NCBI GenBank assembly: GCA_964519935.1
Contig: CAZFLQ010000048.1
Span: 1 to 18,019, forward strand
DNA: 18,019 bases
Direction: 5' to 3'
From: an uncultured Puniceicoccaceae bacterium
GTDB lineage: Bacteria; Verrucomicrobiota; Verrucomicrobiia; Opitutales; Puniceicoccaceae
Under the pieces are notes generated by a model that made no database searches, had not been told where the DNA came from, and saw nothing but the letters and a program-made list of their open reading frames with translations. Positions 2,931 to 14,510 of the stretch are shown piece by piece (position 1 is the first letter of the stretch; the number at the start of each line of letters is the position of its first letter). Made by a program: the position numbers and the translations under genes.

Positions 2931-3806
2931 TTAGCCGGTAACGTCGGCGATCTCTTCTTTGCCGAGGCCGGTAAACTGTGCGAGGAAGCGGGTGAGGCGC
3001 ATCTTGATCTCGTGCCGGGGAACGATTTGGTCAATCAGCCCACGGTCGAGAAGGAATTCGGAAGTCTGAAATCCCTCGGGGAGATCCTGCTGGGTGGTTT
3101 CCTTGATAACGCGGGGACCGGCGAAGCCAACGAGGGCACCGGGTTCGGCGAGGATGAGGTCACCAAGGGAGGCAAAGCTGGCCATGACCCCGGCCATCGT
3201 GGGGTTGGTCAGGATGGAAATGTAGGGCAGGCCGAGACGGGAGAGGCGGCCGAGGGCGGCGCTGGTTTTGGCCATTTGCATGAGGCTGAGGATGCCCTCA
3301 TACATCCGGGCACCGCCGGAGGTGCTGACGATAATGACAGGAGTTTTCATCTCAACCCCGCGTTCGATGCAGCGGGTGATTCTTTCGCCGACGACCGACC
3401 CCATGCTGGCACCGAGAAAACGAAAATCCATCACGGCGAGGTTAATGCGGATGCCGCTGAGGTCTCCGTAGCCGGAGAGGACGGCATCGGAAATGCCGGT
3501 CTTCTTTTCGTATTGGGCAAGCTTGTCGGGATAGGCACCGGAGGGACCGCGGAACTTGAGGGGATCGCAAGAGCGAAGGCCGCCATCGGTCTCGGTCCAG
3601 GTTTCTTCATCGATGAGGGAATTAATGCGGGCGGGAGCGGGGAGGGGAAAGTGATAGCCGCTCTTTGGGACGACCATCAGGTTTTGCTCCAACTCCTTGT
3701 TGTAAATGATCTCGCCGGAAATCGGGCATTTGCTCCAGAGGCCTTTAGGGATGTCCTTTCGGGAGACGGTGACGCGGGAATACTGTGGTTTACTGAAAAG
3801 TGGCAT
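2931..3806 (-). CDS. accD: Acetyl-CoA carboxylase carboxyltransferase beta subunit
   Basis: Carboxyltransferase core ('GGARMYEG', '[13 protein letters not shown]') and an AccD-type N-terminus '[20 protein letters not shown]'. Only one of the four zinc-finger Cys is retained. Confidence 0.9.
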
Positions 3807-3911
3807 CGGATTGAATCCTGAATGATTGGTCGTGTAGTCAAGGGCTTGGGATTGGTGAGATCAACCTTTTAGACCCTCGGTGTTTTCGCTTGTCGGTTGC
3901 GGGTGCGGTGA

Positions 3912-4967
3912 ATGGAGTTGGGAGAAGTGCGATTTCAGAAAACGGTTTTGGATTCCCTCGTAACGGCGTTGCCGGAGGAGGTATGGACCTCGGAGGCGAT
4001 TGAGGAGCGGTTGGCTCCGGCTTACGCGCGGGCAGGTTTGCAGCGCGGGCGGATCGAATTGATGACAGGCATCCGCGAGCGCCGGATGTGGGCAGAAGGA
4101 ACCCGTCCGAGCGCAGCCTCGGCGATGGCGGTGAATCGTTTGTTGGATTCTGTGGGGGTGGATCGGGAGAAGATCGATATTTTGATGCACACGGCGGTGA
4201 GCCGGGATCGATTGGAACCGGCGACGGCAGCGACGGTACACCGTCTGGCGGGCCTCGGAGGGGGATGTCAGATTTTCGATCTGTCGAATGCCTGTCTGGG
4301 ATTTTTGAATGGGCTCCTGGTGGCGGCGGCTTTTGTGGAATCGGGGCAGGCGGATCGGGTTCTGGTCGCAGCGGGGGAGAATGGCCGCCCGCTGGTGGAG
4401 GGGACGATCCGTGCCTTGAACGCAAAGGAGGATTTGAACCGGCAGAGAATCAAGCCCTGGTTCGCAAATCTGACGGTCGGTTGCGGGGCGGTGGCGGCCC
4501 TGGTTTGTCGGGAGAATCTGGCAACAACGGTCCATCCCGTCCGGTTGCGGGGCGGAAGCGGGGAAACGGACACGCGTTATTCCGAGCTTTGCGAGGGGGA
4601 TGCGTCGGGTGAGGAGTTGGTGATGGCGACGGATTCGGAGGAGTTGCTGGTGGCGGGAATCGGGGTGGCCGGGCGTTCGTGGGATCGGTTTTGTGAGGAA
4701 ATGGAGGTGGATGCGGGTAGTTTTGAACGGATCGTTACCCATCAGGTGGGCCGGGCGCATCAACGGGAACTTTATCGGGGGCTGGGTCTGGATCCGGCAC
4801 TGGATTATCCGACCTTTCCGGTCCTCGGGAACGTTGGGTCGGTATCGTGTCCGGCGACATTGGCGATGGCGATGGAGGCGGGAGCGGTCGTCGCGGGGAA
4901 TCGGGTCGCTTTGCTGGGGATCGGGAGTGGATTGAGTTCGGTGATGCTGGACGTGGAGGTTCTATGA
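3912..4967 (+). CDS. FabH-like thiolase (beta-ketoacyl-ACP synthase III family; OleA-like candidate)
   Basis: KAS III architecture: 'MTGIRERR' near the N-terminus, active-site Cys context 'FDLSNACLGF', 'VTHQV' (His) and 'GNVGSVSCP' (Asn). The stop overlaps the start of the downstream hydrolase. Confidence 0.8.
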   Translation: MELGEVRFQKTVLDSLVTALPEEVWTSEAIEERLAPAYARAGLQRGRIELMTGIRERRMWAEGTRPSAASAMAVNRLLDSVGVDREKIDILMHTAVSRDRLEPATAATVHRLAGLGGGCQIFDLSNACLGFLNGLLVAAAFVESGQADRVLVAAGENGRPLVEGTIRALNAKEDLNRQRIKPWFANLTVGCGAVAALVCRENLATTVHPVRLRGGSGETDTRYSELCEGDASGEELVMATDSEELLVAGIGVAGRSWDRFCEEMEVDAGSFERIVTHQVGRAHQRELYRGLGLDPALDYPTFPVLGNVGSVSCPATLAMAMEAGAVVAGNRVALLGIGSGLSSVMLDVEVL

Positions 4968-5860
4968 AGCACTGGAATCGGGAATTACCGGATCGGCTAA
5001 AGGTGCTGTATCCGTTCGAGCGCCGTTATTTTGAGCATCCGGACGGTGCCCGTCAGCACTACGTCGATGAAGGCGACGGGGATACGGTTGTGCTAATGGT
5101 GCATGGAAATCCGAGCTGGTCGTGGTTGTGGCGGGATCTTATTTTGCGCCTTCGGGGGAGCTATCGCTGCGTCGCGGTGGATCATATTGGGTGCGGTCTA
5201 TCGAGTCGGCCGGGGCGGGAATATGGGTATACGCTGGAGACGCACATCGCCAACCTCCGGCGTTTGTTGGATTCGTTGGAGTTTTCGAAGATTCACCTCG
5301 TGGTCCATGACTGGGGTGGGCCGATCGGTCTGGGGGCGTTGATGGGGCTGGGGGAAAAGTTGGATCGTGTGGTGATCACGAATACCTCGGCCTTTCCGAT
5401 GCGGGTGGGGGATTGGAAGATCGAAATCTGCCGAAAACCCTGGATTGGACCGCTATTGTCGGCGGGTTTGGGACTTTTTCCGAAAGGGGCGGTTCGCAAG
5501 GCGGTCGTTCATCCAATGGCGGAGGGAGTGGCGGAGGGATTTCTATTCCCCTATCGGCGGGCCTCGGAACGTCGGGCGATTGGAGCATTTGTTCGCGATA
5601 TCCCGGTCGGGCCACGGCATCCGACCTGGTCGACTCTAAAGCAGGTGGAAAGTTTTCTGCCGTCGTTGCGGGAGCGGGAGGTCCTCCTGCTTTGGGGAGG
5701 GCGGGATTTTTGTTTTGACGCGCGTTTTCTAAACGAGTGGCGGGATCGTCTGCCGGACGCGCGGGTTGAGTGGTATGGAGATGCGGGCCACTATGTGTTG
5801 GAGGATGCGGGCGAGGTAGGAATCGACGATATCGCGGGTTTTTTGGGAGTACCGGATTGA
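4964..5860 (+). CDS. Alpha/beta hydrolase, haloalkane-dehalogenase-like (OleB-like candidate)
   Basis: 'HGNPSWSWLWR' and nucleophile-elbow 'VHDWGGPIGLG' match the HLD/OleB-type fold. I place the start at ATG 4964, which overlaps the upstream stop (ATGA). The longer upstream ORF in the track is G-rich and implausible. Confidence 0.8.
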   Translation: MKHWNRELPDRLKVLYPFERRYFEHPDGARQHYVDEGDGDTVVLMVHGNPSWSWLWRDLILRLRGSYRCVAVDHIGCGLSSRPGREYGYTLETHIANLRRLLDSLEFSKIHLVVHDWGGPIGLGALMGLGEKLDRVVITNTSAFPMRVGDWKIEICRKPWIGPLLSAGLGLFPKGAVRKAVVHPMAEGVAEGFLFPYRRASERRAIGAFVRDIPVGPRHPTWSTLKQVESFLPSLREREVLLLWGGRDFCFDARFLNEWRDRLPDARVEWYGDAGHYVLEDAGEVGIDDIAGFLGVPD

Positions 5861-5960
5861 TTTGAGATCTGAAAACACGGGGGCGACCTTTTCGTAGAGT
5901 CGGGTTGGTTCTTGCAGTTGGGGGAAGGTTCGGGCAGGGTGGAGGGTTTAGGTTAAATTC

Positions 5961-7130
5961 ATGAGTGTGCGCCGTTTTGTTTCCAGCCATGTAGCCGATT
6001 TGCCCCGATCCGGGATCCGGGATTTTTTCGCGATCGTTGCGCAGATGCCGGAGGCCATTTCGCTCGGAATCGGCGAGCCTGATTTTGTGACCCCGTGGCA
6101 CATTCGGGAGGCGGCGATCTATGCTCTCGAACGGGGCAAAACCTATTACACGGATAACCGGGGGCTGCTCTCTTTGCGAAAGGAAATTTCGCGCTATGTG
6201 GAGGGCTTTTTCGGGGTTGGCTACGATCCGGGGGAAGAGATCCTCGTGGCGGTGGGTGTTTCCGAAGCTCTTGATCTGGCATTGCGGGCGGTCCTGAATC
6301 CGGGAGACAAGGTGATTTACCATGAACCCTGTTATGTCAGCTACAGTCCGAGTATTGTGTTGGCGCATGGCGTTCCGGTCGGGGTGGCGACGACCCCGGA
6401 GGAGGGCTTTACGCTGCGGCCGGACCGGTTGATCGAGGCCTGGGAACCGGGATGCAAGGTGCTGATCCTGAATTTTCCGACCAACCCGACGGGCGGGACG
6501 GTAGGTCGGGATTCTCTGGAGGCGATTGCCCGGTTTGTGATCGAAAAGGATCTCCTGGTGATCTCGGACGAGATTTATTCGGAGCTGACCTACGATGGCG
6601 AACACAGCAGTATTGCGGCCCTGCCGGGGATGCGGGAGCGGACCCTGCTGTTGCACGGGTTTTCAAAGGCCTTTGCGATGACCGGGTTTCGGATCGGGTA
6701 TGGATGCGGACCGGCTGAACTGATTGAGGCGATGATGCGCGTCCATCAGTATTCGATGCTGTGTGCGCCGATTCTGAGCCAGGAGGCAGCGATCGAAGCG
6801 CTCCGTAACGGGGCGGAGAGCGTTGCGATGATGCGTGACCAGTATCGGCAGCGCCGGGATTTTATCGTGCGGCGGTTCCGGGAATGTGGTCTACCCTGCC
6901 ATCTGCCGAACGGAACCTTTTATGCCTTTCCGGAGATCGGGGGGACGGGGATGGACGAGGTGGCTTTTGCGAGAGGGTTGTTGGAGACAGAGAAAGTCGC
7001 AATGGTTCCGGGGACTGCCTTTGGGCCGACCGGGGCAGGGTATGTCCGGGCGAGTTTCAGCACGAGCTACCGGCGGATTATCGAGGCGACCGAACGGATC
7101 GAGCGCTATGTTGGAGAGGTATCCAAATAA
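5961..7130 (+). CDS. PLP-dependent aminotransferase, class I/II (AspC-like)
   Basis: 'LGIGEPDF', 'NFPTNPTG' and the PLP-lysine context 'HGFSKAFAMTGFRIGY'. Length 389 aa. Confidence 0.85.
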   Translation: MSVRRFVSSHVADLPRSGIRDFFAIVAQMPEAISLGIGEPDFVTPWHIREAAIYALERGKTYYTDNRGLLSLRKEISRYVEGFFGVGYDPGEEILVAVGVSEALDLALRAVLNPGDKVIYHEPCYVSYSPSIVLAHGVPVGVATTPEEGFTLRPDRLIEAWEPGCKVLILNFPTNPTGGTVGRDSLEAIARFVIEKDLLVISDEIYSELTYDGEHSSIAALPGMRERTLLLHGFSKAFAMTGFRIGYGCGPAELIEAMMRVHQYSMLCAPILSQEAAIEALRNGAESVAMMRDQYRQRRDFIVRRFRECGLPCHLPNGTFYAFPEIGGTGMDEVAFARGLLETEKVAMVPGTAFGPTGAGYVRASFSTSYRRIIEATERIERYVGEVSK

Positions 7131-8566
7131 TGAATACAGATGCAGGTGAACGGCAGGTTGTTCTGGTCGGACGTCCGAACGTGGGGAAGAGCCGATTGTT
7201 CAATCGTCTGGCGGGGAAACGAATTTCGATTGTCCATGACCTGCCGGGGGTGACCCGCGATATTGTGACCCATCCGCTGAAAGGTGGACGGGTGCTTGTG
7301 GACACGGGGGGACTGGGGCTGGTCGAGGGGGCGACCCCGGAGGTGCTGCGGGAGGCTGTGGAGACGCAGGTTTTTGTGGCGACGGAAACGGCCAGTCTGA
7401 TTCTTTTCGTACTCGACGTGCGCGAGGGGCTGACTCCGCTCGACGAGGAGATTGCGATGGAGTTGCGAAAGGCGCGCTGTCCGGTCCGGGTGGTTGTGAA
7501 CAAGTGCGATACGGAGGCACTCGATTTACGGGCGCTGGACCTCGGGAAGATTGGTTTTGGGGATGTCGCGCCGGTTTCGGCGGAGCATGATCGGGGAATT
7601 CGGGCACTGGAAAAATGGATCTTTGATGTGGTTCCGGCGGTTGAGGATGCGGCATCGGAGGAGGATCTCGATGCGCATCGGGTGTCGATCTGTTTTGCGG
7701 GAAAACCGAATGTCGGGAAATCCTCGTTGACCAATCGGTTACTGAAGGCGGAGCGGGTGATCGTGAGCGATGTGCCGGGGACGACGCGGGACGCGGTGCA
7801 GTTCAATCTCGATTGGACGACGCCGAACGGTCGGGAGTTTCTGTACCGTCTGCACGATACGGCGGGTTTGCGGGCAAAGCGGAAGATCGATTCGTCGATC
7901 GAGTATTTTTCGGCTTTGCGGACGAAGGAGGCGGTCGAGCGGAGCGATGTGGTGGTGTATCTACTTGACGCCCTGACAGGAGCGACGAAGCAGGACCAGC
8001 GTTTTGTCGGGGACGTTCTGGAGGCGGGTCGGGGTATGGTTCTGGCAGTGAACAAGTGGGACCTTGCGCTGGAAAGCTTTGCGACCGGTGGGGTGGATGG
8101 ATTTACCGATGAGAATGCCTTCACGAGGGCCTACGAGGCAGCACTGCGGAGAGAATTGTTCTTTTTGCCGGAGTGCCCGATCGTCTTTCTTTCCGCGATG
8201 GAGGGGCACGGAATCGACGCCATGATGACGGCGGTGCGGAAGGTTCACCGCGTGCAAAATACCCGTCTGGCGACGGGACCGTTGAACCGTAAAATTGGTG
8301 AGTTGTTCGAGGCAAATCCGCCGAAGGCGAAGGATGGCAAGCGCTTCAAGCTGTACTACACCGTTCAGACGGGGGTGGCGCCGATCAGCCTGAAGGTCTT
8401 TTGCAACAACCCGAAATTGCTCGACGACTCGTTTCGGAGGTATCTTGAAAAGGGATTGGTTAGCGGCTTCAAGCTGACGGGGGCGCCTCTGGCGATGAGG
8501 TTTGTCGGGAAAAGCCGGGAGAAAAACCCCTTTGTGTCGGCATCGGGCAAGCCGCTGAGAGGTTGA
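7130..8566 (+). CDS. der: Ribosome-associated GTPase Der (EngA)
   Basis: Two tandem GTPase domains ('GRPNVGKS' ... 'GKPNVGKSSL') plus a C-terminal KH-like region. The ATG at 7130 overlaps the aminotransferase stop (TAATG). The longer in-frame ORF in the track is a G-rich artefact. Confidence 0.9.
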   Translation: MNTDAGERQVVLVGRPNVGKSRLFNRLAGKRISIVHDLPGVTRDIVTHPLKGGRVLVDTGGLGLVEGATPEVLREAVETQVFVATETASLILFVLDVREGLTPLDEEIAMELRKARCPVRVVVNKCDTEALDLRALDLGKIGFGDVAPVSAEHDRGIRALEKWIFDVVPAVEDAASEEDLDAHRVSICFAGKPNVGKSSLTNRLLKAERVIVSDVPGTTRDAVQFNLDWTTPNGREFLYRLHDTAGLRAKRKIDSSIEYFSALRTKEAVERSDVVVYLLDALTGATKQDQRFVGDVLEAGRGMVLAVNKWDLALESFATGGVDGFTDENAFTRAYEAALRRELFFLPECPIVFLSAMEGHGIDAMMTAVRKVHRVQNTRLATGPLNRKIGELFEANPPKAKDGKRFKLYYTVQTGVAPISLKVFCNNPKLLDDSFRRYLEKGLVSGFKLTGAPLAMRFVGKSREKNPFVSASGKPLRG

Positions 8567-8836
8567 GGTCGCAGACATCCTGGTCTGGATGGAATTGGAA
8601 TGAACCTAAACGTTCGCGTGTCCGATTCTGGGCGCGACGAAAGAGCGGGCTTTCGAGTTTGATGAAGTTTTCCAAATCGAAATCGCTATCGGGTCTCGAA
8701 TCAGGGGAAGGCGAATCGATTTCGATCCCGATCCCGATTTCGACCAATAAGGAACCATAAAAGGCAGCCATCTTCAATGGTCAGGCCGACCCCTCGATCA
8801 TGAAGCCAGGCCCGGACATCGTGGTTTGGAGTGTGC

Positions 8837-8955
8837 GGGGCGCCGAAAAGGGATTGCAAATCCCTTCTCCATAGGGGGCGCCGAAAAGGGATTGCAAATC
8901 CCTTCTCCATAGGGGGGCGCCAAAAAGGGATTGCAAATCCCTTCTCCATAGGGGG
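8837..8955. repeat. Three tandem ~38-39 bp direct repeats, each with a perfect 8-bp inverted repeat (AAGGGATT-gca-AATCCCTT)
   Basis: Unit 'GGGCGCCGAAAAGGGATTGCAAATCCCTTCTCCATAG' occurs three times head-to-tail, with hairpins at about 8848-8866, 8886-8904 and 8925-8943. Confidence 0.9.
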
Positions 8956-8990
8956 TGGAGTCGGTGAGCGGACCTCCTGCGGTGGGCGTG

Positions 8991-10388
8991 TCAGGAGTTG
9001 GGTGGGGTTTGGTCGGGGTTTTGCGGGGGTGCGGTCGTGGGGACTGTTGGGTTGCCCATTTTCCCGAGAAATTCGGGGAGTTCGATCCCGACGTTGCGGG
9101 TTAGGTCGTGGATCGGGGGAATGGCCCCGGCGAGTCCGGAAACAAAGGAGGCGGTAGAGTTTTTGCCGTCGGCCCCGCGCCCGCCTTCCCAAACGGTGAT
9201 GTTGCCGATTTCGAGGTTGGAGATTGCCTTGACCTGTTCGGCAACGAGTTCGGGCAGTTTTTCGGTGATCATGAGGAGGGCAGCGAGTTCGGCGTTGCCT
9301 CCGGCGGCCTCGACGACCTTGGCGAGACCAGCGGCCTTTTCCTCGAGTTCGGAGCGGTTGCCCTTGGCCTCGGCCTCCATCATGGAGCGGATACCGTCGG
9401 CCTGACCCTGCTTCTCGATGCGGATCTTCTGAGCCTCGGCCTCGGCGAGGGTCTCGATCCGCTCCTTTTCGACGAGGGCGGGGACGACAACGTTGGCCTT
9501 TTGGGTGGCGCGGTCGCGTTCGGCGCGCTGGACCTCGGCGGTCTGCTCGGCGGCGTAAGCTTCCTCGAGGGCGCGGGCGCGGGCGACCTTTTCGGCGGCG
9601 GAGGCAGCGCGTTCGGCCTCGGCCTCGCGGGTACGGCGTTCAGAATTGGAGTTGGCGATTTCGACTTTGGAGAGGTTTTCCCCGGTGGTGGCCTCGGCGT
9701 CGGCACTGGCAACGGAAATCCGTTTGTCGCGATCGGCGCTGGCCGAACCGACCTCCCCGTCCCGGTTGGCCATGGATACTTTGACCTTGGCTTCATTGAT
9801 CGCTTTGCTGGAAGCCTCCTGGCCGAGGGCATCGATGTAGCCGGATTCGTCGGTAATGTCCTGAACGTTGACGTTAATCAGTCGCAGTCCGACTTTTTTG
9901 AGTTCGACCTCGACCCCGTTGGAAATGTTTTCAATCAGCTTGTCGCGGTCGGCGTTGATTTCCTCGATGTCCATCGTCGCGATGACAACGCGCATCTGGC
10001 CGAAGATGATATCCTTGGCAAGCTCCTTGATCTCGGTCAGGCCGAGTCCGAGAAGCCGTTCGGCGGCATTTTCCATCACCCCGGTTTCGGTCGAGATCCC
10101 AACGGTGAAAGTGGAGGGCGTGTTGACCCGAATGTTTTGTTTGGAGAGCGCACCCTGAAGGTTGATGTCAATCGGGAGGGGGGTGAGGTCGAGGAACTGG
10201 TAGTCCTGGATCACCGGCCAGATGAAGGAAGCACCACCATGGTAGCAGCGGGCAGACTCTCCGCCGCTAACTTTACCGTAAACGACAAGGATGCGGTCAG
10301 AGGGACAGCGTTTGTAGCGGGAGGCGAACGCAATGAGCGTTCCGAAAAGCGCGAGGGCAATCGCGACGAGGAAGATGAGGATGTCCAT
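8991..10388 (-). CDS. Flotillin-like SPFH/band-7 domain protein (YqiK/FloT family)
   Basis: N-terminal hydrophobic anchor 'MDILIFLVAIALALFGTLIAF', an SPFH domain, then a long E/A-rich coiled-coil ('EAEAERAASAAEKVARARALEEAYAAEQ'). The ORF also reaches an upstream ATG at 10499, but that N-extension is P/R-rich and would overlap the nfeD-like gene. Confidence 0.8.
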   Translation of the reverse strand: MDILIFLVAIALALFGTLIAFASRYKRCPSDRILVVYGKVSGGESARCYHGGASFIWPVIQDYQFLDLTPLPIDINLQGALSKQNIRVNTPSTFTVGISTETGVMENAAERLLGLGLTEIKELAKDIIFGQMRVVIATMDIEEINADRDKLIENISNGVEVELKKVGLRLINVNVQDITDESGYIDALGQEASSKAINEAKVKVSMANRDGEVGSASADRDKRISVASADAEATTGENLSKVEIANSNSERRTREAEAERAASAAEKVARARALEEAYAAEQTAEVQRAERDRATQKANVVVPALVEKERIETLAEAEAQKIRIEKQGQADGIRSMMEAEAKGNRSELEEKAAGLAKVVEAAGGNAELAALLMITEKLPELVAEQVKAISNLEIGNITVWEGGRGADGKNSTASFVSGLAGAIPPIHDLTRNVGIELPEFLGKMGNPTVPTTAPPQNPDQTPPNS

Positions 10389-10443
10389 GGGAGGTGTGGG
10401 TCGGTGGGTTTTGGTTCTTTGCGGATCGGTATTCGAGAGAAAA

Positions 10444-11034
10444 TCAGACGACGGTTGTGGCGGTGGTCTCGGACACGACCGAGACGGCGTTGTTGCCAAT
10501 CACACCGACGATCTCGACGCGGGTGCGCGGGGGGATTTCAGAACTTTCGTCGGTGTAGGCGTCGATGATGCTGAGCCGGTTCTGGACCATGACCTCGACC
10601 TGTCCGGCTCCGCTGCGGGCGGCGGGAATGCGGATGTAAACCGAACCTCCGTTCCCGATCGCATTGTGGATGTCGATTGTTCCGGTGGTTTGAAGACGCA
10701 TCAGCAGCAGCATCACCCCGTAGATCGCAAACATCAGGGTGAGTCCAGACAGGGTCGCCCAAATCAGGGCAACCGGAAGGGAGGCACCCTGATTGAGAGC
10801 GATTCCGCCAACCCAGCCGAAGCCAGTGAAAAAGGCGGTGACGGTACGAAATGAAAGGATCCCAAGCCCAGTGGTGTGATCGGTGGCGGCACCGATGTCG
10901 GGCAGATCGGTAGAGTGTCCGCCGATCCCGATGATTGAAAGAATCAGATCGAAGAGCATCAAAGCAAGGGAGACAATGCCGATGCCGTAAAGAAGCTGTT
11001 TCTCGAAATCGAGACTGATCCACCAGTCAACCAT
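10444..11034 (-). CDS. NfeD/YqiJ-like membrane protein (flotillin-associated)
   Basis: Three predicted TM helices followed by a beta-rich OB-fold-like C-terminus ('GSVYIRIPAARSGAGQVEVMVQNRLSIIDAY'). Sits immediately upstream of, and co-oriented with, the flotillin gene, as in yqiJ-yqiK and yuaF-floT operons. Confidence 0.7.
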   Translation of the reverse strand: MVDWWISLDFEKQLLYGIGIVSLALMLFDLILSIIGIGGHSTDLPDIGAATDHTTGLGILSFRTVTAFFTGFGWVGGIALNQGASLPVALIWATLSGLTLMFAIYGVMLLLMRLQTTGTIDIHNAIGNGGSVYIRIPAARSGAGQVEVMVQNRLSIIDAYTDESSEIPPRTRVEIVGVIGNNAVSVVSETTATTVV

Positions 11035-11271
11035 GGGGTAAATTCACGATGGGGAGAACCTAGTGGTTCCTGTTCGGGATCGTCGATGGAAAATTCCGGT
11101 GTTTCCGGAAAGCTGACGAAATCGACACATGGATGGCGTCGAGGATCTTTTTGCGCGGGTTCGGGATTAAGCCCCCCGGTGTCTTGCGGGAACTCTGGCC
11201 TAGCCGGGGGATGGTGGTGACCTCCGATTGCGTTTGCGGTTGGCGAATTTCAACAATTACTGTCGAGAAGA

Positions 11272-12345
11272 ATGGATTTTGAATCAATCAACGGCTTAAT
11301 CGGGGACTATGAGGCTTGGCATGAGGCCTCGGTTGAACGGTTCGTGGGCCGTTTGCGCGAGGCTGAGGGGGTTGATCCGGTGATCGGGCGTTTTGGGGAG
11401 TATCTCCGGAGGCCGGGAAAGCGACTGCGTCCCCTGTTGTTGATTCTGGCGGCGGAGGCTGGTGGGTGTGGAGATCGTGGGATGGTGATGCCAGCAGCGT
11501 TTTCGGTCGAGGCGTTCCACACCTTCATCCTGATTCACGACGATGTCATTGACGAATCAGCCTCCCGCCGGGGCCGCCCGAGCCTTCATCGCGATCTTGT
11601 CGACGGGCTGGGGATGCCGTTGCGAAGGGGTGAGAGCCTGGCGGTTGTTCTGGGGGATCTCCTCTATGGCTATGCTCTCGAGGTACTCAATGAAGTAACG
11701 GCGGGACCGGGAATACGGGCGACAGCAATCCGGTATTTTTCGCGGGTTATTCAGGACACCGGGCTGGGGGAGGCGCTGGAGCTGAGCCTGGCGGAGCGTC
11801 CTCTGGCAGATGTGACGGAGGCGGCGATTGAGACCGTTTACCAGCTCAAGACGACCCGCTACACCTTCGAAGCACCGCTAGTTCTGGGGGCTGTTCTGAG
11901 CGGCCTGCCGGATGGTGCGCAGGAAGTTCTCGAACGGTATGCCCGCCCGGTGGGTAGGGCTTTTCAGATCGCGAATGATTTGCACGAGATTCGGGAAGTG
12001 ATCGAGGGGCGGACGGAGCTGGCCTACGATCTCTCGGGAGAGATTCGAACTCTCTATATGCTTCGGCTGATGGCGGCGGTTGGGGCGGGGGACGTTGAGC
12101 AAGTGGAACGTTGGGCAGGCGGTGAGGGAGAAGGGATAGCCGGGATTGTCGGACTTGTCCGAAGCGACAAAGGCGTGGAAATCTACGGGTCGCTGCGGGA
12201 GGAGGTTCTCGAGGGGTTCCGTCAGGGCAGGCAAATATTGGCGGCGGCAATAGACGAAGGGATTTTGCCGATCCGGTTTGCGTCAATTGCCGATCTTGTC
12301 GAGGCAAGGTTCGAGCACAGCGAGGCATTTGTATCCAAAAAATGA
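11272..12345 (+). CDS. trans-Isoprenyl diphosphate synthase (polyprenyl synthetase) family protein with degenerate second Asp-rich motif
   Basis: 'GKRLRPLLLILAAE' and an intact first Asp-rich motif 'LIHDDVIDESASRRGRPS', plus 'YQLKTTRYTFEAP'. The second motif is 'FQIANDLHEIRE', not DDxxD. The stop overlaps the polB start. Confidence 0.75.
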   Translation: MDFESINGLIGDYEAWHEASVERFVGRLREAEGVDPVIGRFGEYLRRPGKRLRPLLLILAAEAGGCGDRGMVMPAAFSVEAFHTFILIHDDVIDESASRRGRPSLHRDLVDGLGMPLRRGESLAVVLGDLLYGYALEVLNEVTAGPGIRATAIRYFSRVIQDTGLGEALELSLAERPLADVTEAAIETVYQLKTTRYTFEAPLVLGAVLSGLPDGAQEVLERYARPVGRAFQIANDLHEIREVIEGRTELAYDLSGEIRTLYMLRLMAAVGAGDVEQVERWAGGEGEGIAGIVGLVRSDKGVEIYGSLREEVLEGFRQGRQILAAAIDEGILPIRFASIADLVEARFEHSEAFVSKK

Positions 12346-14510
12346 ATACAAATGACGAATGCCTGGTCGGTCTCTGGGTTGATCCTGACGGGATCGTGAG
12401 GGAGGCCTGGAGGGATCGTTCGGGGCGGCGGACGGACCGGGAAGCCCGACTGTCTCCGCCGGTTTGGTGCAGTGCGGGGATTGCGGAAGAGTGGGAGCAG
12501 CGTGGCGGTGGGGGCACGGTCGTTGCGCTGGAAGGGGCGGGGGTCCTTGATCGGCGGATTACCTTTGGGGATCCGGCCGGGGCGGAGGCGTTTTTGAAGG
12601 AGCACCGGGGAACGGCCGAGGTGGAGGCATTGCGTCCGGCCGAGCACGCCTGGCTGGTGTTGAATCGCGGCCGGTTTTTCGAGGAGGGCACCTTGCGGCG
12701 TGTTCGGCGTTTGCAGTTGGATATCGAGACCGCAACGGGCGAGGGGAGGGCGTTCAGTGATCCGCACGAGCCGGAGGACCGGGTTCTCGCGATTGGGCTG
12801 AGGTTTGAGGGACGGAATGAGATCCTCGATTTGGGGGAAGAAACGGACGCGGCTGAGAGGGGGCTGCTGAAGCGGTTCGCCGAGCGTTTGTGTGAGATCG
12901 ATCCGGACACGATGGAAGGGCACAATATTTTCCGGTTTGACCTCGAATACCTGCGCGAGCGGTGTCGGCGTTATCGGTTAAAGCCAGAGTGGGGTCGGTT
13001 TGGGGAGATTGCCCGTTTTCGAAACAGCCGGATTCGGATCGCGGAACGGACGGTGGATTTCCCCCGCTGTGACGTTCCCGGTCGGACAGTGGTGGATACA
13101 TTTTTGTTGGTCCAGATTCACGATACGACCTCGCGGGAGCTGGAGGGCTACGGGCTGAAGGATGTCGCGGTGGCCTTTGGGGTAACCGATCCGGATGCGG
13201 GGGAACGGACCTATCTGCGGGGGGAGTTGATTGCGGATGCCTGGCGACGGCAGCGGGATGTGTTCCGGAAATATCTCGAGGATGACCTCCGCGAGACCGA
13301 GGGGGTGGCCTCGGTTTTGCTGCCGACCTATGTGGCACAGTGTCCCAACTTTCCGATGACGTTGCAGGAGATACTGCTTCGAGGGACGGCGGCGAAGGTT
13401 GATTCGGTTTTCCTCGAGGCGTATCAGCATGCGGATCAGGCTCTGCCAGTTCCGGGCAGTATCGAGCGATTCGAGGGTGGGTATAGCGGGAGTTTTGAGA
13501 CCGGGGTTTTCCGGCCGGTTTACCACTATGACGTGGCATCGCTCTACCCGAGCCTGCTATTGCAGATCGGGAGGAATCCGGTGGGGGATGACCTCGGGAC
13601 GTTCATCCCGACCCTCGAGCGGCTGCGGGCGGCCCGGCTGGAGTTCAAGCGAAGGGCGAGGGAGTCTACGGATCCGGAGGATGTGCGGGACTATGGGGCG
13701 CGTCAGGCGAGTTTCAAGATTCTGATCAATTCGTTTTACGGGTATCTCGGCTTTGCCGGGGCGCGTTTTGCGGACGGGAAACTGGCGGCAGAGGTTACCC
13801 GCCGGGGCCGGGAGCTGATCAAGCATTTGATTGGGGAATTGGGAGGGCTGGGGGTACGGATTCTGGAGGCGGACACGGACGGGATTTATGTGTGTCCGGA
13901 TGGCTATGCAGGTGGACCGGAGGACCTGTTGGGGGATCTTTCGGCGCGGTTGCCGGAGGGGATTGATCTGGAGTTGGGAGGCGTTTACGAGGCAATGTTC
14001 TGCTACAAGGCGAAAAACTACGCTCTCGCGACGGATGTTGGGATGGTGGTGCGGGGATCGGCCCTGCGCTCGCGGGGTACAGAGCCCTTTTTGCGGGAGC
14101 TGACGAGGCACTATTTAGCGGAGCGGCTCGGCCTCGAAACCCGTTCGACGCTCGACCTGGTCGAGGAAATGGGAACCGAAATCGAGGAACAGCGGATGCC
14201 GGTCGAGCAGTTGGCGAAGGCGGAGCACCTCGGGATGTCACCGACGGTCTACCGGAGCGGGGTAGAGGCTGGAACGAAGACCCGGCGGGCGGCACTGGAG
14301 GCGGCCTTGGGGATCGAGCCGCTCCCGAAACAGGGGGATCGGGTGGCCTATTACCTGCGAGAGGGTGATCGGTCGGAAAAGGCGGATTGGCAGCGGGCGG
14401 TTCCGGTTGAGGCCTACGATCGGGAGAGATGTCCCTATGATGCGGGTGCCTATCTGAAAAAGTTGCGGGCTTGGGCGCGGCGGTTTCCGCTCGAGCCGGA
14501 ACTGTTTTAG
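12342..14510 (+). CDS. polB: Family B DNA polymerase (DNA polymerase II-like) with 3'-5' exonuclease domain
   Basis: Exo I 'LDIETAT', Exo II 'HNIFRFDLEYL', Exo III 'YLEDD'; polymerase motif A 'YHYDVASLYPSLL', motif B 'KILINSFYGYLGF', motif C 'EADTDGIYV'. Length 722 aa. Confidence 0.85.
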   Translation: MNTNDECLVGLWVDPDGIVREAWRDRSGRRTDREARLSPPVWCSAGIAEEWEQRGGGGTVVALEGAGVLDRRITFGDPAGAEAFLKEHRGTAEVEALRPAEHAWLVLNRGRFFEEGTLRRVRRLQLDIETATGEGRAFSDPHEPEDRVLAIGLRFEGRNEILDLGEETDAAERGLLKRFAERLCEIDPDTMEGHNIFRFDLEYLRERCRRYRLKPEWGRFGEIARFRNSRIRIAERTVDFPRCDVPGRTVVDTFLLVQIHDTTSRELEGYGLKDVAVAFGVTDPDAGERTYLRGELIADAWRRQRDVFRKYLEDDLRETEGVASVLLPTYVAQCPNFPMTLQEILLRGTAAKVDSVFLEAYQHADQALPVPGSIERFEGGYSGSFETGVFRPVYHYDVASLYPSLLLQIGRNPVGDDLGTFIPTLERLRAARLEFKRRARESTDPEDVRDYGARQASFKILINSFYGYLGFAGARFADGKLAAEVTRRGRELIKHLIGELGGLGVRILEADTDGIYVCPDGYAGGPEDLLGDLSARLPEGIDLELGGVYEAMFCYKAKNYALATDVGMVVRGSALRSRGTEPFLRELTRHYLAERLGLETRSTLDLVEEMGTEIEEQRMPVEQLAKAEHLGMSPTVYRSGVEAGTKTRRAALEAALGIEPLPKQGDRVAYYLREGDRSEKADWQRAVPVEAYDRERCPYDAGAYLKKLRAWARRFPLEPELF

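Follow-up and report, generated by a model that had tools for sequence, protein, structure and literature searches.

We report that two adjacent genes on the plus strand of an 18,019-nt contig from an uncultured Puniceicoccaceae bacterium (CAZFLQ010000048.1 in assembly GCA_964519935.1; the whole stretch is referred to as the window) are oleA and oleB, which belong to the head-to-head olefin (Ole) pathway, and that this pathway is probably split in the Opitutales genome concerned, with oleAB at the present locus and oleCD elsewhere. The first gene, oleA (positions 3912 to 4967), encodes an OleA-type thiolase, i.e. an acyl-CoA:acyl-CoA alkyltransferase, of 351 residues when read from the ATG at 3912. 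The second, oleB (4964 to 5860), encodes an OleB-type alpha/beta hydrolase of 298 residues, a predicted beta-lactone decarboxylase of the haloalkane dehalogenase (HLD) subfamily III type. To judge from the related Opitutales, the genes for OleC and OleD very probably lie in another part of the source metagenome-assembled genome (MAG). A split pathway is favoured because Opitutales loci with an adjacent oleB carry oleAB alone, because separate oleC-oleD pairs are present in the order, and because oleABCD has been reported in Opitutae.

The identification of the 3912-4967 thiolase as an OleA orthologue is well supported by sequence comparisons. A search of the PDB returned Xanthomonas OleA structures (3fk5, 3row, 4ku2 and others) as the top twelve matches, all over the full length with 192-197 bits and E values of ~5e-57; the 197 bits were obtained with the X. 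campestris and X. oryzae enzymes (3row, 3fk5), while the best FabH reached 79 bits and Escherichia coli FabH 50 bits. The thiolase passed the NCBIfam model NF006720 (374 bits vs a cut-off of 285), on which OleAs from complete oleABCD clusters scored 418-437 bits, and failed the FabH models of the same collection (79-93 bits vs cut-offs of 249-292, e.g. TIGR00747 with 79 vs 292). It also follows the pattern EPxx[AS]x(14,18)DxxNACL, by which Surger et al. found OleAs (PMC7158056), in the form of LEPATA, 16 residues and DLSNACL, with E102 inside. Among 32 canonical OleAs, 56 alignment columns were conserved to at least 95%, and the thiolase keeps 50 of these, including E102, C128, H277 and N307. 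The initial annotation had noted a beta-ketoacyl-acyl carrier protein (ACP) synthase III fold and a Cys/His/Asn triad. Pfam assigned ACP_syn_III (PF08545) and ACP_syn_III_C (PF08541) to the protein; Cys128 (within SNACLG), His277 and Asn307 align with invariant columns of the OleAs from oleABCD clusters and with X. campestris OleA (XcOleA). Moreover, in the alignment with 3fk5 and 3row, Glu102 is the counterpart of the OleA-specific Glu117 of the X. campestris enzyme. The nearest named relatives of the oleA product belong to Puniceicoccaceae and other Opitutales (Verrucomicrobiota), and some close homologues carry the name acyl-CoA:acyl-CoA alkyltransferase in the IMG database. In N-terminal alignments the first residue of the homologues corresponds to Val6, and the start codon of oleA might therefore be the GTG at 3927, which would give a protein of 346 residues.

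The hydrolase encoded at 4964-5860 is likewise well supported as an OleB orthologue, again from its sequence. For its placement, which is a comparison of profile scores, we built a hidden Markov model (HMM) from 41 OleBs whose genes directly adjoin oleC, taken from genomic and metagenomic loci. The hydrolase of the window scored 335 bits on this profile, the other Opitutales OleBs 378-400 and the training members 388-482, compared with 184 bits for the dehalogenase-type enzyme DhmeA and 161 bits for DhaA, which serves as an outgroup only. With the OleB encoded in a Bacteriovorax oleABCD cluster it shares 41% identity (219 bits). It keeps 60 of 64 conserved OleB columns as well as an intact HLD-III pentad (Asn49, Trp117, Asp116, Asp248 and His276), this pentad of Asn, Trp, Asp nucleophile, His base and Asp acid being as defined in PMC10503415. 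Pfam assigned Abhydrolase_1/6, and the HLD hallmarks noted earlier from the sequence are found at residues 47-57 (HGNPSWSWLWR) and 114-119 (VHDWGG). The best PDB match, with 112 bits, was DhmeA (8ckp), an HLD-III enzyme; it is the only solved haloalkane dehalogenase-like enzyme of subfamily III, to which X. campestris OleB (XcOleB) also belongs (PMC10503415). All NCBIfam haloalkane dehalogenase models were failed both by the hydrolase (NF002873, 138 bits vs a cut-off of 466; NF002938, 126 vs 241; NF002043, 115 vs 265) and by the OleB of the complete Bacteriovorax oleABCD cluster. The initial annotation had put forward an OleA/OleB pair, and the score comparisons bear it out on both sides: the thiolase groups with OleA and not with FabH (197 bits for XcOleA vs at most 79), and the hydrolase with OleB and not with the dehalogenases (335 bits vs 184 and 161).

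The two reading frames share the four nucleotides ATGA (4964-4967), an overlap already pointed out from the sequence, in which the ATG of oleB lies over the TGA of oleA; this suggests translational coupling of the two genes. A GGAGG motif at 4955-4959, within the 3' end of oleA and 4 nt upstream of the oleB ATG, presumably has a Shine-Dalgarno-like role. Overlaps of this kind were present in 27 of 60 oleA-oleB junctions, of 1 nt at 17 loci and of 4 nt at ten (the window included), and in split and canonical loci alike. Scanning of positions 3700-6100 gave no sigma-70-like promoter, and the terminator-like matches in the same region did not exceed the shuffled expectation, with none in the gap between oleB and the downstream aminotransferase gene.

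No OleC or OleD gene had been seen on either flank, and the searches agree with this: with OleC and OleD seeds from Bacteriovorax, Desulfobulbia and Opitutales the best tblastn match in the 18-kb window had an E value of 0.66, and neither an AMP-binding nor a 3Beta_HSD domain was detected by Pfam in the ten other large open reading frames (ORFs) of the window. Related loci were collected by scanning one genome per species, complemented with a few look-ups, and were then subjected to tblastn with OleB, OleC and OleD seeds. Among the 26 distinct loci from Opitutales and other verrucomicrobia, an oleB match directly follows oleA in 23 (two oleB genes were cut by a contig end), and at none was there an oleC, or an oleD beyond a 54-bit match to a short-chain dehydrogenase/reductase (SDR), within 10 kb on either side. 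The 23 stand-alone oleAB loci include those of Puniceicoccaceae, Coraliomargarita, Lacunisphaera, Oleiharenicola, Opitutus and Cephaloticoccus, and the stand-alone oleAB loci of Opitutales are located among housekeeping genes. An oleB next to or fused with oleC was found neither in the window nor in any Opitutales locus examined. The oleAB/oleCD layout is typical of the Opitutales lineage and not special to the window. In Bdellovibrionota and most Desulfobulbia, on the other hand, tblastn revealed contiguous oleABCD.

Other arrangements were also seen. Two loci, from Verrucomicrobiia Co_bin.226 (L024) and Puniceicoccales Ct408_bin121 (L025), have an OleA homologue (49-55% identity) without an adjacent oleB, and the planctomycete loci (L050-L066; Pirellulales and others) have oleA alone. 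In cable bacteria (Candidatus Electronema and Electrothrix; L026, L028, L029, L039 and L041) oleA is followed by oleB, and oleC and oleD are missing from the surrounding sequence (up to 10 kb). In Coraliomargarita akajimensis (L002, 5282-9899) genes for a photolyase, a YfcH-type epimerase, an FAD/amine-oxidase-type oxidoreductase, a FabA-like dehydratase and an SDR are positioned on the same strand directly upstream of oleAB; upstream of oleA in 26 Opitutales loci the FabA-like family recurs in 22 and a photolyase-sized family in 18, while the photolyase-to-SDR block is absent from the window. The FabA-like and SDR genes were considered as substitutes for OleD and OleC and set aside, given that they are missing from the window and that real oleCD pairs exist in the order.

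These pairs emerged from a metagenome scan with an OleC alignment, which gave 80 loci with the layouts ABCD, BCD, CD and C alone. The OleC loci were clustered on identity distances using the unweighted pair group method with arithmetic mean, a rough clustering only, from which two groups with stand-alone oleCD stood out. A profile of both groups retrieved OleCs named Coraliomargarita sp. SDUM461004 (= Thalassobacterium sedimentorum), Puniceicoccaceae, Opitutales, Opitutae and Lacunisphaera, and for one member of the clusters the IMG label is olefin beta-lactone synthetase. On the Opitutales contigs oleC is directly followed by a 3Beta_HSD-type reductase gene (oleD), with housekeeping genes around, and no oleA or oleB was found near the oleC-oleD pairs on the contigs inspected. 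The Opitutales OleCs pass the OleC-family model NF006754 (631 and 675 bits vs a cut-off of 478), and the OleDs score 364-408 bits on OleD models, the level of the OleD from a canonical cluster. In three loci (L156, L157 and L162; ~7000-13500) oleCD has conserved neighbours: upstream, on the opposite strand, genes for an S-adenosylmethionine-dependent methyltransferase, thymidine kinase and Ppx-GppA, and downstream a gene of the metallo-beta-lactamase fold. The stand-alone oleCD locus examined first (L091) is not from Opitutales but from the planctomycete Gimesia maris, and on some metagenome contigs (L080-L082) oleBCD is present and oleA is missing. Across bacteria of the Planctomycetes-Verrucomicrobia-Chlamydiae (PVC) group, the dispersal of ole genes thus takes several forms.

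Ole genes and olefins have been described before from bacteria of the class Opitutae. In the study of Cabello-Yeves et al., oleABCD was confined to the Opitutae genomes (PMC5673642), and oleC has been reported in Opitutaceae MAGs (PMC10176705). There is no mention of Opitutae in the supplements of PMC7064751 and nothing on PVC bacteria in PMC6463001, and we found no literature linking hentriacontanonaene to Verrucomicrobia.

Taken together, both proteins show every OleA and OleB feature that was tested at the level of sequence. The exception is that oleC and oleD are not linked to their genes, and this concerns the gene organisation and not the enzymes. We infer that the source MAG carries oleCD, and likewise the enzyme activities and the product; the individual steps are modelled on the characterised Xanthomonas enzymes. 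A long-chain acyl-CoA would acylate Cys128 of OleA, and Glu102, the equivalent of Glu117, would deprotonate the alpha-carbon of a second acyl-CoA such that a non-decarboxylative Claisen condensation yields a 2-alkyl-3-keto acid. OleD, encoded elsewhere, would with NADPH reduce the keto acid to a beta-hydroxy acid, which OleC, also encoded elsewhere, would convert to a cis-beta-lactone using ATP. The lactone would then be decarboxylated by OleB, with Asp116 as nucleophile, His276 as base and Asp248 as acid, to give a long-chain cis-olefin for the membrane. Synthesis of OleB would be coupled to that of OleA through the ATGA overlap.

Some observations weigh against a split Ole pathway at this locus. 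The window is the entire contig and constitutes 18 kb of the source MAG, and oleCD is not on it. No genome with both pairs was found: the OleA and OleC accessions and assembly identifiers never coincide among the matches listed (the top 120 per search), which is uninformative. Within the Opitutales set, the OleBs of the window and of its nearest relatives (L001 and L004) diverge most (326-335 bits vs 378-400) and share the changes P150D, N170G and P239E at positions conserved to at least 95% in canonical OleBs. In addition, the OleB of Xanthomonas forms a complex with OleC and OleD and not with OleA (work cited in PMC7158056 and PMC10503415), so a separation of oleAB from oleCD departs from the known physical complex.

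The initial annotation had offered two alternatives, a system split across the genome or a variant two-gene module with a different product chemistry, of which the first is favoured by the stand-alone oleAB and separate oleCD loci of Opitutales and the second is without positive support. Such a module, which we regard as unlikely, would operate with no OleC or OleD, OleA and an OleB-like hydrolase giving a product other than an olefin; this could be long-chain ketones, formed by spontaneous decarboxylation of the beta-keto acid, or the condensation product could be attacked by the hydrolase in a thioesterase or hydrolase reaction. It would fit with the absence of oleC and oleD within 3.9 kb upstream and 12 kb downstream, with the co-occurrence of both pairs in one genome not being found among the matches listed, with cable bacteria also having oleAB without oleCD within 10 kb, and with the greater divergence of the OleB lineage of the window and L001 relative to other Opitutales OleBs, including three shared changes at conserved positions. 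Against it, the full catalytic pentad and 60 of the 64 conserved OleB positions are kept, stand-alone oleAB is the rule across Opitutales, where oleCD pairs are widespread, there is a report of oleABCD from Opitutae genomes (PMC5673642), and the sole known OleB substrate, a beta-lactone, needs OleC.

It is more doubtful still that the Puniceicoccaceae-like lineage to which the window, L001 and L004 belong lost or never had oleCD, with oleAB being self-contained and making another product, or with OleB having another partner. The basis for this reading is that the OleBs of the lineage are ~60 bits below the other Opitutales OleBs and share three substitutions, and because of this divergence a lineage-specific change of function retains a small probability. 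A decaying remnant of oleABCD with genes that are no longer functional is very improbable: the partners are absent locally and the OleB of the lineage is somewhat divergent, but both ORFs are intact, of full length and with all catalytic residues present, and Opitutales families share the pair together with its tight junction and part of the neighbourhood. Finally, the reading of the pair as housekeeping neighbours by chance, i.e. a FabH starting fatty-acid synthesis beside a haloalkane dehalogenase or epoxide hydrolase, is effectively refuted, for although Pfam shows only generic ACP_syn_III and Abhydrolase domains, the divergently oriented accD next to oleA makes a FabH role plausible and homologues are publicly annotated as "3-oxoacyl-ACP synthase III", the scores are far below the cut-offs of the FabH (79-93 vs 249-292 bits) and haloalkane dehalogenase models (115-138 vs 241-466), XcOleA ranks far above any FabH and the OleB-profile score far above those of DhmeA and DhaA, accD was not seen beside oleA in L001-L003 and L164, and IMG names some homologues acyl-CoA:acyl-CoA alkyltransferase.

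The flanking genes are those given in the initial annotation, accD and an aminotransferase gene. The former (2931-3806; TIGR00515, 356 bits vs a cut-off of 317) is located upstream and is divergent from oleA; in the related loci for which genes were called (L001-L003 and L164) accD was not seen adjoining oleA. Downstream of oleB, a class I/II aminotransferase gene identified by Pfam (5961-7130) is followed by der, and both genes are found again in the vicinity of oleAB in Coraliomargarita and a Puniceicoccaceae MAG, which favours vertical inheritance over recent insertion. The other genes of the window are all of housekeeping type according to Pfam and encode a ComF-like phosphoribosyltransferase, TruA, a FolC-like Mur ligase, a flotillin, a polyprenyl synthase, a family-B DNA polymerase, a pyruvate kinase and a GAF histidine kinase; an ORF adjoining the flotillin gene has no Pfam match. 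Rfam gave no match in the window. The polyprenyl synthase gene (11272-12345) overlaps the family-B DNA polymerase gene (12342-14510; 722 residues) by 4 nt, and these two are odd partners for an apparent translational coupling.

The genes der and flotillin converge, and between their 3' ends there is a tandem array (8837-8955) with 3.1 copies of a 38/39-bp unit, GGGGCGCCGAAAAGGGATTGCAAATCCCTTCTCCATAG(G), with 96-97% matches and a Tandem Repeats Finder score of 222-224. Each unit contains a short hairpin, AAGGGATT-GC-AAATCCCTT, and the array, which is without an Rfam match, may be of the repetitive extragenic palindromic (REP)-like type or a terminator array. The plus strand of the window also shows a very pronounced GC skew regardless of gene orientation, with an overall value of +0.23 and per-kb values reaching +0.33; the corresponding values are +0.16 for the nearest Puniceicoccaceae loci, +0.13-0.14 for Coraliomargarita and ~0 for Opitutaceae loci.

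The main value of these data is correct annotation. The public labels on oleA and oleB are "3-oxoacyl-ACP synthase III" and "alpha/beta hydrolase", and the Opitutales OleC is publicly labelled "peptide synthase" or "fatty acid CoA ligase". Genome mining has been done with a rule requiring two or more ole genes beside oleA (PMC7064751) and with one looking only within 5 kb on either side (PMC7158056), so that olefin producers in Opitutales, Planctomycetes and cable bacteria may be overlooked or under-called by rules that rely on tight clusters. The split as such is a mild curiosity in that it parts OleB from OleC, to which it is fused in Actinobacteria and with which it is complexed in Xanthomonas.

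Among known systems, the OleA of X. campestris, an acyl-CoA:acyl-CoA alkyltransferase, catalyses the first step of olefin and beta-lactone biosynthesis. The window thiolase shares ~40% identity with it over the full length (3ROW, 4KU2 and others; E value 5e-57), including the Cys/His/Asn triad and the OleA-specific Glu (Glu117 in X. campestris, Glu102 in the window), whereas the gene context differs: in Xanthomonas all four genes are in one cluster and the window oleA adjoins oleB only. Compared with XcOleB, an HLD-III beta-lactone decarboxylase, the window OleB belongs to the same subfamily and has the same Asn-Trp/Asp-His-Asp pentad, the comparison having been made via OleBs from oleABCD clusters of other phyla and not with the XcOleB sequence itself; it differs in that it neither adjoins nor is fused with oleC and in having three to four changes at positions that are otherwise conserved to at least 95%.

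With the canonical oleABCD clusters (Shewanella, Xanthomonas, Bacteriovorax L030 and Desulfogranum L031) and the actinobacterial oleA-oleBC-oleD arrangement the window has the order oleA then oleB in common, and with the canonical loci also the same kind of stop/start overlap between the two genes. In contrast to oleABCD, no oleC or oleD follows the window oleB, and the Opitutales oleCD genes form a second two-gene locus with conserved neighbours of its own. The oleACD beta-lactone clusters of the lipstatin and nocardiolactone type lack oleB and have oleC and oleD adjoining oleA (PMC7064751). An OleA-type thiolase is common to these clusters and the window, and the arrangement in the window is the reverse of theirs, with oleB present and oleC and oleD distant.

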